A stretch of DNA of 64,000 bases from Escherichia coli. Its GTDB lineage: Bacteria; Pseudomonadota; Gammaproteobacteria; Enterobacterales; Enterobacteriaceae. The position numbers were made by a program. Location of the stretch: NCBI RefSeq assembly GCF_050920415.1, contig NZ_CP169310.1. One strand, given 5' to 3'. Positions 23,157 through 29,100 of the stretch are shown one piece after another; positions within the stretch are counted from its first letter, which is position 1; each line of letters opens with the position of its first letter.

Positions 23157-26100
23157 CAATGGAACAAATTGCTGCCCATTGTGAGTCATATTCGCCCTGA
23201 TTTTCCAGCACCATACGGGTCGCCCGCTGACGGACTTCGGGGGAAAACCAGTATTTTTAGTCATCCTGTTTACCTCCTTCTCAGAGAGTTTCATCTCCAG
23301 GATTCCCGGGACAGTTCACAGGAATTCTGCACTTTGATAATTTTGACGATGCCGTTAAGTGCTGCGCAGACCTGAATATTTCGTTCTTTGTGGATGTGGG
23401 AAACAAAAAGATGGTCTTCTGGTTTGTTCGTGTTGATGACGAAGGCTATCCGGAAATTGCCCGCTGTACGGAGTGGGTGTTTGCGACCATTCTTGCCGGT
23501 ATCAGCGCCGGCGGTATGTACTGTCCGGAGTGCGGCACGGTTCACTGGCCGGACGGAGTCCCCCCCCTTCTGATGCTTCCCTTTTTGCCGACATTTTTCA
23601 GCAGGGAAACCGCTTCGTCAGAGGGGGAAGTCGCAGTGGTCACCCGACTCAGTACTTTAGTGTCAACCTCCGGTATCTAGTTGCTTCTCCTCTGCTCTAT
23701 AAAATAAATCAACTATCATCACACTGCGAGTTCATATGTACCGCCAGTGACGCATCTGAAAAACGCGTCAATATGAGTTCACCGGAATATTACTTACCCC
23801 CGGAACATCACCAAAGGGAATGGAGGGAGAGGGGAGACTGATTTTGGCTAAAAGTTAATTGCCCATAAAATAATTTAACATTAAAATAACCATATTTTTT
23901 CATGTCTTAAGTTTAAGCTGGAGAAAAAATGGAGTTCAATCGGAGACAGTTCTTTCGAATCTGCGCGGGCGGTATGGCAGGAACAACTGTTGCATCTCTC
24001 GGATTCTTATCATCTTTTTCCGTTCACGCGGAAACCCGTCAATACAAACTCTTAAAAGCAAAAGAGACACGTAATAACTGCACATACTGCTCAGTAGGGT
24101 GCGGCATGCTGATGTACAGTCTTGGCGATACAGCTAAAAACGTCAAAGAAAGTATCTACCATATTGAGGGCGATCCGGATCATCCGGTGAGCCGTGGCTC
24201 GTTGTGTCCTAAAGGCGCTGGCGTGTTGGATTATATTCATAGTAAAAACCGTCTGCAGTATCCCGAATATCGAGCACCTGGGGCAGATAAATGGCAGCGT
24301 ATTAGCTGGGATGATGCGATTAATCGTATTGCCCGACTCATGAAAGATGATCGTGATGCCAACTTTATTGAGAAAAACGCACAGGGCGTTACTGTCAACC
24401 GATGGGCCACTACAGGCATGCTATGTTCCTCAGCGGCAAGCAATGAAACCGGGATCCTTGACGGTAAATTTGCTCGTGGACTAGGTATGGTCGCTATCGA
24501 CTGTCAAGCACGATTATGTCATGGCCCCACCGTTGCTGCTCTTGCACCAACATTTGGACGTGGTGCTATGACCAACAATTGGGTCGATATTAAAAATGCC
24601 AACGTAATACTTATTATGGGCGGCAATGCTGCTGAGGCACATCCGGTAGGCTTTAAATGGGTGGTCGAAGCGCAAACTAAAAACGACGCGACCGTGGTGG
24701 TGGTAGACCCGCGCTTTAACCGTAGCGCCGCCGTCGCCGATCTGTATGCGCCAATACGCGCTGGTTCAGACACAGTATTCCTGCTCGGAGTAATCCGTTA
24801 TCTGCTGAAGAACAACCGGGTGCAGCACGACTATGTGCGCCATTACACGAACGCCAGCCTTATAATACGTGATGACTATCAGTTCAATGACGGTCTGTTT
24901 AGCGGCTATGACGACAAGAAACGTCAGTATGATAAATCAAGTTGGTTCTATCAGCTTGACGAACAGGGTAATGCCCTGCGTGATGATTCATTGAATCACC
25001 CACGCTGCGTGTGGAATTTGTTGAAAACTCACGTCGAGCGTTATACGCCAGAAATGGTTAACCGACTGTGTGGGACTACCGTGGCGGATTTCAATCGAAT
25101 CTGCGAAATTCTCGCTAGTACCTGTGTTCCTGATCGCACCGCCACCATCCTGTACGCACTGGGTTGGACACACCACTCCAACGGGGCACAGATTATTCGC
25201 GCCGCTGCTATGCTCCAGTTACTACTGGGTAATATAGGTATGGCAGGCGGTGGTGTTAACGCCCTACGTGGCCATTCCAATATTCAGGGATATACCGATC
25301 TTGGCTTATTGTCGACAAACCTGCCGGGCTATATGCCGCTGCCGTCGGAAAAACAGCCAGACTATCAGACCTATATTTCGCAAATCACGCCACCTGCGTT
25401 AGGTGTGAATGAGGTCAATTACTGGAAAAATACTCCGAAATTCTTTGTTAGCATGATGAAAAGTTTCTGGGGCAATAATGCAACAGTGGAAAATAACTGG
25501 GGCTACGACTGGCTACCTAAATGGGATCGCCTGTATGACGTAATGACTCAGACCGAATTGATGCTCGAAGGGAAGCTCAATGGTTACATCGTTCAGGGAT
25601 TTAACCCACTGGCGGCGTTTCCCGATAAAAACAAATCAATTCGGGCACTTTCCAAACTGAAATATATGGTGGTTATCGATCCACTGGCCACTGAGTCTTC
25701 CAATTTTTGGCAGAATCATGGCGAGATGAACGATGTAACCCCGGCAGATATTCAGACCGAAGTTTTCCGCCTGCCATCTTCCTGCTTTGCTGAAGAAAAT
25801 GGTTCAATAGCTAACTCCGGGCGTTGGTTGCAGTGGCACTGGGCTGCGGCAGAACCACCAGGTGAAGCCTGGCATGACGGAAAGATCCTTGGCCACCTGT
25901 TTATGCGACTGCGTGAACTATATCAGCAGGAAGGCGGAGCGAATCCTCAACCCTTGTTGAATATTGCCTGGAATTATAAAGATCCATATGACCCACACCC
26001 AGAAGAGATTGCTCGTGAAGCAAATGGCCAGGCACTTGAAGACATTTATGATGATAAAGGCCAGCTTATTGCCCAGAATGGTCAGCAGCTCAGCAATTTT

Positions 26101-29100
26101 GCACAGTTACGCGATGACGGCTCTACCAGTTGTTTCTGCTGGGTCTACTGTGGAAGCTGGACAGAGCAAGGTAACCAGATGGCAAATCGTGATAATAGTG
26201 ATCCATATGGTTTGGGCTGCACACCGGGCTGGGCGTGGTCATGGCCAGCCAACCGCCGTATTCTCTACAATCGCGCTTCGGCAGATCCATCAGGAAAACC
26301 GTGGGATCCAAAACGAGCTCTGCTGCATTGGGATGGCAGAAAATGGCTCGGTATGGATGTCGCAGACTATGATAAGGCAGAACCGGGCAGCAGTGTTGGT
26401 CCGTTTATCATGAATCCGGAAGGTGTAGCGCGTTTGTTCTCCATCGACAAAATGAACGACGGGCCATTCCCGGAACATTACGAACCCATTGAGTCGCCTA
26501 TTGGTACTAACCCGCTGCACCCGGATGTTGTATCCAGCCCAGTTGCACGTATCTACAATGACGATATCACCAATATGGGTAAAGCGGATGCCTTCCCGTA
26601 CATCGCAACAACTTACTCCATTACGGAACTGTTTCGCCACTGGACCAAACATGCTCTGCTCAACGCCATCGTTCAACCCGATCAATTCATCGAAATCGGT
26701 GAGGCGCTGGCGAGCAAAAAAGGCATTAAAGCTGGTGATACGGTGAAAGTGATGTCGAAACGCGGCTTTATAAAAGCAAAGGCGGTGGTCACCAAACGTC
26801 TGCAAACGCTGATGATCGATGGTAAGCAGGTCGATACAATCGGTATTCCTTGTCACTGGGGCTTTGAAGGTGCTACACGCAAAGGGTTCCTCGCCAATAC
26901 GTTAACGCCATCGGTGGGTGATGCGAACTCGCAAACACCGGAGTATAAAGCATTTCTGGTCAACATAGAGCGAGCGTAAGGAAGGTGACTCATGGCTATG
27001 CAATCACAAGATATTATAAAACGCTCTGCGACGAACAACATCACGCCGCCGCCTCAGGCGCGGAATTACCGTGCAGAAGTGGCGAAACTAATTGATGTAA
27101 CCACCTGTATTGGGTGTAAAGGCTGTCAGGTAGCATGCTCAGAGTGGAACGATATTCGTGATGAAGTGGGTTACTGCAACGGAGTCTATGACAACCCGAC
27201 AGATCTCAGCGCTAAGTCTTGGACAGTGATGCGCTTTAGCGAAACCACCCAGAACGATAAGCTGGAATGGCTGATCCGCAAAGACGGTTGCATGCACTGC
27301 GCCGATCCTGGTTGTTTGAAAGCCTGTCCATCACCTGGAGCAATCATTCAGTATGCCAACGGGATTGTCGACTTTCAGTCCGAGCACTGCATTGGCTGTG
27401 GCTACTGCATTGCTGGCTGCCCATTCAATATTCCCCGGCTTAATCCTGAAGATAATCGGGTCTATAAATGTACGTTGTGCGTTGACCGGGTCAGCGTGGG
27501 TCAGGAACCTGCCTGCGTGAAAACTTGTCCGACCGGTGCTATCCAGTTTGGAACCAAAAAAGAGATGCTTAATGTAGCTGAAACTCGTGTGGCACAGTTG
27601 AAAAAACGTGGCTATGTCAACGCGGGTATTTACAACCCTCAAGGGATTGGCGGCACCCACGTGATGTATGTACTTCATCACGCGGATCAACCATCTCTTT
27701 ACCACAATCTGCCAGATGACCCCAAAATCGCCGTACCAGTAAACTTCTGGAAGGGGATTTTAAAACCACTCTCCGCAGCCGGATTTATCGCCACTTTTGC
27801 CGGGCTGATTTACCACTACGTGGGAGTAGGCCCAAACAAAGAGACGGATGATGATGAAAAGGAAAACGGTCATGAGTAAAAGCAACATGATTCTGCGTAC
27901 CAAATTTATCGACCGTGCTTGTCACTGGACGGTGGTAATAAGCTTCTTCCTGGTGTCACTTTCCGGTATTGCGCTTTTCTTCCCAACATTGCAATGGCTT
28001 ACTGAAACCTTCGGTACACCGCAAATGGGACGAATTCTACATCCGTTTATCGGAGTGATGATTTTCATCATGCTGATGTTTATGTTCGTTCGTTTTGTAT
28101 ACCACAATATTCCCGATAAACAGGATCTTCCTTGGATTAAAGGGATCGTTGATGTACTTAAAGGCAATGAGCATAACGTCGCTGATGTGGGGAAATACAA
28201 CGCAGGGCAGAAAATGATGTTTTGGAGCATCATGAGCCTGATTCTGGTATTACTGGTTACCGGCGTTATTATCTGGAGGCCATACTTTGCCCATTATTTC
28301 TCAATTAACATAGTTCGTTGGTGTTTGTTAATCCACGCGACAGCAGCTATTGTACTGATTCACGCCATTCTGATTCATATATACATGGCGTTTTGGGTAA
28401 AAGGTTCAATTAAAGGTATGATTGAAGGGAAAGTTAGTCGACGCTGGGCGAAGAAACACCATCCTCGCTGGTATCGTGAGGTTGAATCTACTGAAAAAGA
28501 AACAACGGAATTACAGTCTAAGTAAAAGATCACCTCCTAAGGAGCTGGTTTCAGATTGCAGACAAAGTCCTAAATAACTGCTCCTAATACCGCTACACTG
28601 TAAGCGTCAACGGAGCACCGTATTGACGCTTATTTATTGGTGAGAACTACGTTCCATGGCAGGAGTTCGTCAACACGGTTGGAGGGCCATTCCGGCAGTA
28701 CGCTCAGAATATGGCGCAGATACGCTTCCGGATCGATACCGTTCAGACGGCAGGTGTCGCGATCAGCCCGTACAGCAGTGCACCACGCTCGCCGCCGTGA
28801 TCGCTACCGAAGAACACGTAATTTTTCTTTCCGAGACAGACAGCACGAAGCGCTCTTTCCGCTGTGTTATTGTCCGCCTCCGCCAGACCGTCATCACTGT
28901 AATAACAGAGGACGTCCCACTGATTCAGTACATAGCTGAACGCTTCGCCCAGTCTGGAGTTTTTCGACAGCGTGCCATTCTTCTCCACCATCCATTCATG
29001 CAGCGACGTCAGTAACGCTTTGCTTCGCTGCTGCCTGACTGCTATTCACCGGAAAGGAGCCAGTCAGTGAATACCTAGTGAAATCGCTTCACCAGAGAAA

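Follow-up and report, generated by a model that had tools for sequence, protein, structure and literature searches.

A stretch of 64,000 nucleotides (nt) from Escherichia coli (RefSeq assembly GCF_050920415.1, contig NZ_CP169310.1; hereafter the window) carries an operon at 23929–28525 that resembles the genes for formate dehydrogenase N (FDH-N). A six-frame list of open reading frames (ORFs) showed three co-directional ORFs in this interval, which together make up an intact fdnG-fdnH-fdnI-like operon. The first (23929–26979, plus strand) encodes alpha, an fdnG-like catalytic subunit of 1016 amino acids (aa) with a molybdenum bis(pyranopterin guanine dinucleotide) (Mo-bisPGD) domain and an N-terminal [4Fe-4S] motif. 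The second (26992–27879, plus strand) encodes beta, an fdnH/fdxH-like subunit of 295 aa with four [4Fe-4S] clusters. The third (27872–28525, plus strand) encodes gamma, the fdnI-like di-heme cytochrome b membrane anchor, which is 217 aa long, or 225 aa if a second possible ATG at 27848 is used. RefSeq names the three genes fdnG, fdxH, and fdnI. Gene order and the overlap of the beta and gamma genes are the same as in E. coli fdnGHI, whose products are 1015, 294, and 217 aa long.

Subunits were assigned with the curated equivalog cut-offs of NCBIfam. Alpha scored 1542.9 bits against TIGR01553, the FDH-N alpha equivalog (cut-off 814.2), and matched positions 3–1009 of the 1009 in the profile. 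Beta scored 467.4 bits against TIGR01582 (cut-off 334.7), and gamma scored 434.2 bits against NF007558, the FDH-N gamma model (cut-off 339). In contrast, gamma reached 265 bits against the model for the gamma subunit of formate dehydrogenase O (FDH-O), under its cut-off of 341. With all three subunits above their equivalog cut-offs, the FDH-N-like three-subunit operon proposed in a preliminary description of this DNA, made from the sequence alone, was borne out. The best match of alpha among solved structures was chain A of 1KQF, the E. coli Fdh-N. Alpha was 70.3% identical to E. coli FdnG (global alignment) and 68.5% to FdoG; beta was 84.7% identical to FdnH, and gamma was 79% identical to the E. 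coli FDH-N gamma. In round figures, alpha (70%) has diverged from E. coli FDH-N far more than beta (85%) or gamma (79%).

The codon of greatest interest is TGT at 24517–24519 (plus strand). Translation of the chromosomal fdnG of E. coli meets one internal stop, at residue 196 in the context QARV*HGPTV, and fdoG of K-12 likewise has its internal stop at 196; these are the UGA codons read as selenocysteine (Sec). In the window, the motif ARLCHGPTV starts at alpha residue 194, and alignment placed its cysteine, Cys197, exactly opposite Sec196 of FdnG and FdoG, as the preliminary description had claimed. That description had also reported no in-frame TGA and no obvious requirement for a selenocysteine insertion sequence (SECIS) element, and both statements held: examination of the whole alpha ORF revealed no in-frame TGA, and the 50 nt after the TGT folded at −13 kcal/mol, which does not differ from shuffled sequence (z = 0.04). 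A SECIS remnant 3' of the cysteine codon was rejected on the same evidence. Because the molybdenum ligand is encoded by TGT, the enzyme should be synthesized with no need for selenium, SelABCD, or a SECIS, and the codon thus predicts selenium independence.

The other residues of the active site and electron path were compared with the cofactor and quinone-site residues of the Fdh-N structure (1KQF). Alpha Cys51, Cys54, Cys58, and Cys93, the ligands of the FeS-0 cluster, are conserved and align with C50, C53, C57, and C92 of FdnG, while Cys197, His198, and Arg447 align with U196, H197, and R446. All 17 of the 17 cysteines of FdnH are conserved in beta. In gamma, the heme ligands His18, His57, His155, and His169 are conserved, as are Asn110, Gly112, Gln113, and Met172 of the menaquinone site. 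Inactivating substitutions, which would have marked the locus as a pseudogene copy, were thus sought among the molybdenum-site, Fe-S, and heme ligands, and none were found. The N-terminus of alpha, MEFNRRQFF, carries a twin-arginine translocation (Tat) signal in which MEFNRRQFFRICAGG aligns with MDVSRRQFFKICAGG of FdnG, and export is predicted. An extra cysteine, Cys192 (24502–24504), lies five residues ahead of the active-site cysteine (DCQARLC), at a position held by asparagine in E. coli FdnG. It was found in 56 of the 120 best homologs, chiefly those nearest in sequence, whereas remoter Cys-type enzymes have N, T, or S in its place; Cys192 might serve as a redox partner of the cysteine that binds molybdenum.

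Comparison of alpha with its relatives placed the operon among the Cys-type FDH-N enzymes of Enterobacterales and Pseudomonadales. Each of the 120 best alpha homologs (120/120) has cysteine at the Sec position. Identities were 95% for Citrobacter, 92% for Kluyvera, 88–89% for Kosakonia and Pantoea ananatis, and 85% for the Klebsiella oxytoca complex. Remoter homologs were found in Gibbsiella (80%), Photorhabdus and Rahnella (78%), and Dickeya and Pectobacterium (77%), and the remotest noted, at 71–74%, were in Proteus, Azotobacter, and Pseudomonas. A neighbor-joining tree, the kind of phylogeny that the preliminary description had called for, grouped the plasmid alpha with the Cys-type enzymes of other Enterobacterales and outside the Sec-type FdnG and FdoG; the tree holds only two Sec-type sequences, so that monophyly of the Cys clade lies beyond its reach. 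The alpha of the window and that of a second E. coli variant (described below) were jointly sister to Citrobacter, deep in a Cys clade that also contained Kluyvera, Pantoea, Kosakonia, Klebsiella, Gibbsiella, Rahnella, Photorhabdus, and Proteus.

At the nucleotide level, homology to Citrobacter is confined to 23848–28527 and amounts to 92–93%. The operon is chromosomal in C. freundii and in one further Citrobacter, and its conserved neighborhood there is free of insertion sequence (IS) elements. It is preceded by genes for a metal-sensing repressor and a zinc alcohol dehydrogenase and followed by umuDC-like genes and by genes for a cytochrome b and a glyceraldehyde-3-phosphate dehydrogenase. 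When GTDB species representatives were scanned with the operon's invariant leader (see below), 17 species were returned, the closest of which reached only ~91–93% nt identity. Since no representative exceeds ~93%, the actual donor is either unsampled or not a species representative; a Citrobacter-like member of the Enterobacteriaceae is the likely source. These comparisons also bear on a local origin, in which a duplicated E. coli fdnG or fdoG recently exchanged its Sec codon for a cysteine codon. Architecture and length do match fdnGHI, and RefSeq gives the genes identical names. Yet alpha is far closer to Citrobacter than to FdnG or FdoG and is nested in an all-Cys clade, its synonymous sites are saturated relative to E. 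coli fdnG, and no SECIS-like remnant was found. Identity, saturation, and tree placement refute a conversion of the E. coli gene, and we give that origin practically no weight.

We then considered how the operon is distributed. Of 5426 complete E. coli genomes, 17 carried the full operon, and every copy was plasmid-borne; the exact alpha protein occurred on 863 contigs of public assemblies. A Sec-type fdnG was found in 5425 of the 5426 genomes; the median number of matching places in a genome was two, which presumably correspond to fdnG and fdoG. It is on this genome-wide survey that coexistence with the Sec-type enzyme rests. The plasmid operon is therefore an added paralog and not a replacement, in agreement with the earlier suggestion of an extra FDH-N paralog in E. 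coli hosts. The accessory genes fdhD and fdhE had been described as missing from the vicinity, and this was correct: tblastn of the window with K-12 FdhD and FdhE gave a best E value of 0.9, and neither gene is annotated there. Their absence is uninformative, because the chromosomal fdnGHI of E. coli likewise has no fdhD or fdhE nearby; in K-12 both genes flank fdoGHI.

Coding sequences were compared for signs of maintenance. Relative to Citrobacter, dN/dS was 0.079 for alpha, 0.047 for beta, and 0.141 for gamma. Among three diverged plasmid copies, the differences were synonymous in 9 of 9, 15 of 23, and 1 of 1 cases, and no frameshift or stop was seen in any plasmid copy examined. These values argue for continued constraint on the operon by purifying selection.

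A second E. coli variant of the operon (positions 7828–12635 of L009) is 97.8% identical in aa sequence and has all three ORFs intact. The unit common to it and the window spans 23756–28565 (plus strand; ~4.8 kb, 95.8% nt identity by blastn). The captured unit thus consists of the three genes and a leader region of ~170 bp, which departs from that of Citrobacter upstream of 23848. The second variant adjoins a Pap/Mrp-type fimbrial operon, an IS21 istB, and an autotransporter gene, and it was either captured independently or stems from an earlier relocation of this 4.8 kb unit.

The retained native 5' region occupies 23848–23928 (plus strand), and its ancestral layout could be read from relatives. 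A gap-free alignment of 20 species, anchored on the leader, gave a dyad AACCA-N11-TGGTT, 18 nt, a −10 element, 9 nt, the leader TTTTCATGTCTTAAGTTTAAGCTGGAG, and the start codon. In the window the leader lies at 23897–23923 (plus strand) and is followed by a GGAG Shine-Dalgarno sequence. Its 27 nt are identical from E. coli to Kosakonia, Phytobacter, and Entomohabitans, despite saturated synonymous sites (dS > 2) in the adjoining gene, and they include the palindrome CTTAA-GT-TTAAG. The leader may be an operator, a small RNA target, or a translational element. The native −10 is TATAAT, or TACAAT in the C. freundii group. If transcription starts ~7 nt after the −10, the dyad would be centered near −41. 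The published IscR type-2 motif is xxWWWWCCxYAxxxxxxxTRxGGWWWWxx (PMC4055776); the native dyad has the same CC-N13-GG spacing and AT-rich flanks and agrees with the motif at 13–15 of 16 specified positions, and it resembles an IscR type-2 site. A search of both strands of the 64 kb window returned no site at 15 of 16 positions of this motif.

Both mobile E. coli copies have lost the left arm of the dyad and agree with the IscR motif at 8 of 16 positions; the place of the whole dyad corresponds to 23843–23867 of the window. The right arm now reads TTGCCC (23859–23864, plus strand, in the window) or TTGTCT, 17 nt before a −10-like TAAAAT (23882–23887), and the mutated arm reads as a better −35. 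Loss of the dyad together with a better −35 points to an activator-independent sigma-70 promoter, or else to read-through from an upstream IS21 remnant. On this evidence, the mobile copies have probably been freed from their native regulator and would be expressed from a weak constitutive promoter or by read-through. The '-N' of FDH-N refers to induction by nitrate and anaerobiosis, which acts through NarL heptamers and an FNR box at −42.5. The TACYYMT heptamer of NarL was not found in the 300 bp upstream, in a scan that is insensitive, as it also missed the known NarL sites of fdnG.

Comparison with described systems helps to place the operon. Relative to E. coli FdnGHI (1KQF), the subunit lengths, the overlapping H and I genes, the Tat signal, the FeS-0 cysteines, the active-site His and Arg, the 17 beta cysteines, the heme histidines, and the menaquinone-site residues are alike. 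In contrast, the plasmid operon has cysteine (TGT) where FdnG has Sec (UGA) and has no SECIS, it is plasmid-borne, and a control region of the FNR/NarL kind was not detected, with the limit on the NarL scan just given. Its nearest counterparts are the chromosomal Cys-type fdnGHI of C. freundii, C. youngae, other Citrobacter spp., Kluyvera, Kosakonia, Phytobacter, and the Klebsiella oxytoca complex, which share the context DCQARLCHGPT, an alpha that is 85–95% identical, and the 27 nt leader. Those operons lie in conserved neighborhoods free of IS elements and keep the dyad, whereas the plasmid copy is flanked by IS debris and has lost it. The Cys-type FDH-N/O of Dickeya and Pectobacterium, which are respiratory enzymes of Enterobacterales 77% identical to the one studied here, are reported to be transcribed and to lack NarL heptamers; these organisms have no sel genes (Babujee et al. 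2012, PMC3349551). There the Cys-type enzymes are the sole respiratory formate dehydrogenases, with no Sec machinery, whereas here the enzyme is added to a host with Sec-type FDH-N.

FDH-N-type genes are found on other plasmids as well. In PLSDB, 148 records contained an FDH-N-type alpha at E ≤ 1e-100, many of them megaplasmids, chromids, or mis-typed chromosomes. The fdnG of plasmids from Providencia rettgeri (74% identical), Salmonella enterica (68–70%), and Yersinia frederiksenii (69%), and those of rhizobial megaplasmids, resemble the present operon in being plasmid FDH-N-type alpha genes, but at ≤74% identity they belong to different lineages. More broadly, Cys homologs of the selenoprotein FdhA and repeated Sec-to-Cys conversions have been described, and the presence of Sec-type and Cys-type FdhA in one cell was reported to be rare (Zhang et al. 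2006, PMC1794560). Cys-type FDH-N is thus an established, widespread lineage; neither its gene family nor the Cys variant nor the annotation is new. What is distinctive about this operon is its carriage on a virulence plasmid, its coexistence with Sec-type isoenzymes, and its apparently rewired promoter. The literature examined contained no description of the operon on its plasmid family, known as p7v-like, or of the rewired promoter.

We read the operon as an intact Cys-type member of the FDH-N family that was horizontally acquired and that would act as a periplasmic formate:quinone oxidoreductase; we put the probability of this reading at roughly 0.75. On this account, a unit of ~4.8 kb would have moved from a Citrobacter-like donor and now lies among decayed IS elements on a plasmid of ~225 kb. 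The enzyme would be exported by the Tat pathway and anchored in the membrane, with a Mo-bisPGD/[4Fe-4S] alpha, a 4x[4Fe-4S] beta, and a di-heme b gamma. Chromosomal fdhD, fdhE, and molybdenum-cofactor genes of the host would mature it in trans. The result would be a selenium-independent route for periplasmic formate to the quinone pool, beside the Sec-type FDH-N and FDH-O of the host. The proposed mechanism has a good basis in the sequence, from which we infer expression, maturation in trans, catalysis, selenium independence in vivo, and any fitness benefit.

Several observations weigh against this interpretation. Only ~81 bp of Citrobacter-like upstream DNA are kept. The clade-conserved dyad is missing from the plasmid copy, which agrees with the IscR motif at 8 of 16 positions and at 3 of 8 key positions, and matches of the −35/−10 type are no commoner in the region than expected by chance. 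An FNR-like box (≤2 mismatches) was not found in the 300 bp upstream, in a search that recovered the control box of E. coli fdnG. The evidence for constraint also has its limits: dN/dS against Citrobacter blends the branches before and after transfer, and the plasmid copies show little diversity (33 differences over three copies, some of them shared). Finally, replacement of Sec by Cys in FDH-H cut activity ~20-fold (cited in PMC3349551), and thus the activity of the Cys enzyme cannot be assumed equal to that of FDH-N.

The promoter data would suit an operon that is intact and effectively unexpressed or unmatured, carried onto the plasmid by IS activity with a truncated control region, persisting only for being recent, and without any physiological contribution. 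The native control region is indeed cut or diverged, with the dyad missing and the FNR-like site not found, the surroundings are full of pseudogenized IS elements, and 17 carriers in 5426 genomes is a low frequency. Against such silent cargo, frameshifts and stops are absent from all copies examined, and the diverged plasmid copies differ mostly at synonymous sites. Two E. coli variants that are 4% apart in nt sequence and sit in different contexts have both kept all three ORFs. The leader, the Shine-Dalgarno sequence, and the −10 region are likewise kept, and the mutated dyad arm makes a better −35. We therefore regard unexpressed cargo as distinctly improbable.

The same upstream region admits a refinement of the reading as a functional periplasmic oxidoreductase, one that is compatible with it. 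The operon could work as an FDH-O-like constitutive or aerobic-tolerant formate oxidase that supplies the quinone pool, for O2 or other acceptors, in place of a nitrate-induced enzyme paired with nitrate reductase. Neither an FNR box nor a NarL heptamer was found upstream, the promoter appears activator-independent, the Cys-type homologs of Dickeya and Pectobacterium lack NarL sites and are induced without nitrate (PMC3349551), and Sec forms are reported to correlate with anaerobic lifestyles (Zhang et al., PMC1794560). The gamma subunit speaks for the other side, as it is well above the FDH-N gamma cut-off and below that for FDH-O gamma, and the insensitive NarL scan overlooked known fdnG sites. 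An FDH-O-like role is thus a possible, if tentative, addition to our preferred reading.

A further step beyond that reading would tie the operon to virulence. The plasmid might provide a selenium-independent formate dehydrogenase that is freed from its native regulator (possibly IscR), is made where the chromosomal selenoenzymes are limited, and serves as a metabolic colonization factor. We consider this rather unlikely as a whole. If it were true, the limiting conditions would be, for example, scarce selenium, or oxidative or iron stress within an inflamed gut or that of a ruminant, and the dehydrogenase would travel together with the heat-stable (ST) enterotoxin, K88-like fimbriae, and a serine protease autotransporter (SPATE) of the plasmid. 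IscR, the candidate native regulator, senses Fe-S cluster, iron, and oxygen status. Formate oxidation by FDH-N and FDH-O has been linked to the gut fitness of enterobacteria, for example in a study of Salmonella (PMC10470504). A selenium-free plasmid formate dehydrogenase would be a transferable means of securing the capacity for formate oxidation, and the operon would offer a natural example of one cell with both Sec-type and Cys-type isoenzymes. The practical weight of the finding is modest.

The borders of the unit are made of IS debris. Immediately upstream are frameshifted pseudogenes of an IS21-family istA/istB pair (21166–23087, plus strand; NF033546 and NF006616, RefSeq), together with an IS3-family transposase fragment (20919–21392, minus strand; NF033516, E = 1.6e-45, RefSeq). 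Immediately downstream are fragments of an IS66-family transposase and accessory protein (28630–29230, minus strand; NF033517 at 28743–28991, RefSeq); it is in this IS66 fragment that thousands of other records match the query. Fragments of IS91 annotated in RefSeq lie at 18931–19281 and 12500–12716, which is 4.6 kb and 11 kb upstream, flanking the enterotoxin gene sta1. The preliminary description had named IS629-like, IS91, and IS66 debris at the borders. The IS66 assignment stood, as did the IS629-like one at the level of the IS3 family (NCBIfam), but IS91 is not adjacent to the operon, and IS21 had been overlooked. A composite transposon was rejected, as the flanks are of unlike families (IS21/IS3 versus IS66) and all are fragments or pseudogenes. 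No convincing terminal repeats bounding the unit were seen near its ends. The sole inverted pair there (23759–23773 and 28621–28635; 15 nt, 87%) runs past the homology with the second variant and is probably due to chance.

Over the operon region the window matches, at 100% identity, the 224 kb plasmid pCFSAN004181P carried by E. coli GB089, as well as about ten sister plasmids. The host replicon is a p7v-like virulence plasmid of ~225 kb, a hybrid of those of E. coli that produce Shiga toxin (STEC) and of enterotoxigenic E. coli (ETEC). Hybrid STEC/ETEC plasmids of this p7v-like kind have been described from Escherichia cryptic clade I and related E. coli (Okuno et al. 2023, PMC10100065), and the main text of that paper does not mention formate. 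At ~135 bp upstream of fdnG, and oriented like that gene, several sister plasmids (among them pMFDS1022581_1 and those of Escherichia sp. 10290 and HH154_1D) carry an intact IS2. Its insertion point corresponds to 23792–23797 of the window (the IS2 occupies 1790–3018 of L007), and the operon is intact in those plasmids. An IS2 inside fdnG in some plasmids was also considered and was rejected, since annotation and blastn both place the element upstream of an intact gene.

Other cargo of the plasmid was visible in the window. The gene sta1, encoding heat-stable enterotoxin ST-Ia, lies at 19714–19932, ~4 kb upstream of the operon and between transposase fragments. A complete-looking gentisate pathway cluster at 5789–11814 is a second metabolic cargo of the virulence plasmid; it comprises genes for 3-hydroxybenzoate 6-monooxygenase, maleylacetoacetate isomerase, a fumarylacetoacetate hydrolase family protein, gentisate 1,2-dioxygenase, an MFS transporter, and a LysR regulator. 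Downstream of the operon, a polysaccharide-like cluster on the minus strand (29432–39610) has low GC content (0.37–0.39 at its start) and encodes a nucleotide-sugar dehydrogenase, an outer-membrane protein of the alginate-export family, two phosphotransferase/kinase-like proteins, an ABC transporter ATPase, and three glycosyltransferases. Also on the minus strand, the S6-family SPATE (40689–44528) is followed by a K88 (F4)-like fae fimbrial operon (44565–54894), and the presence of these two agrees with the hybrid STEC/ETEC plasmid of PMC10100065.

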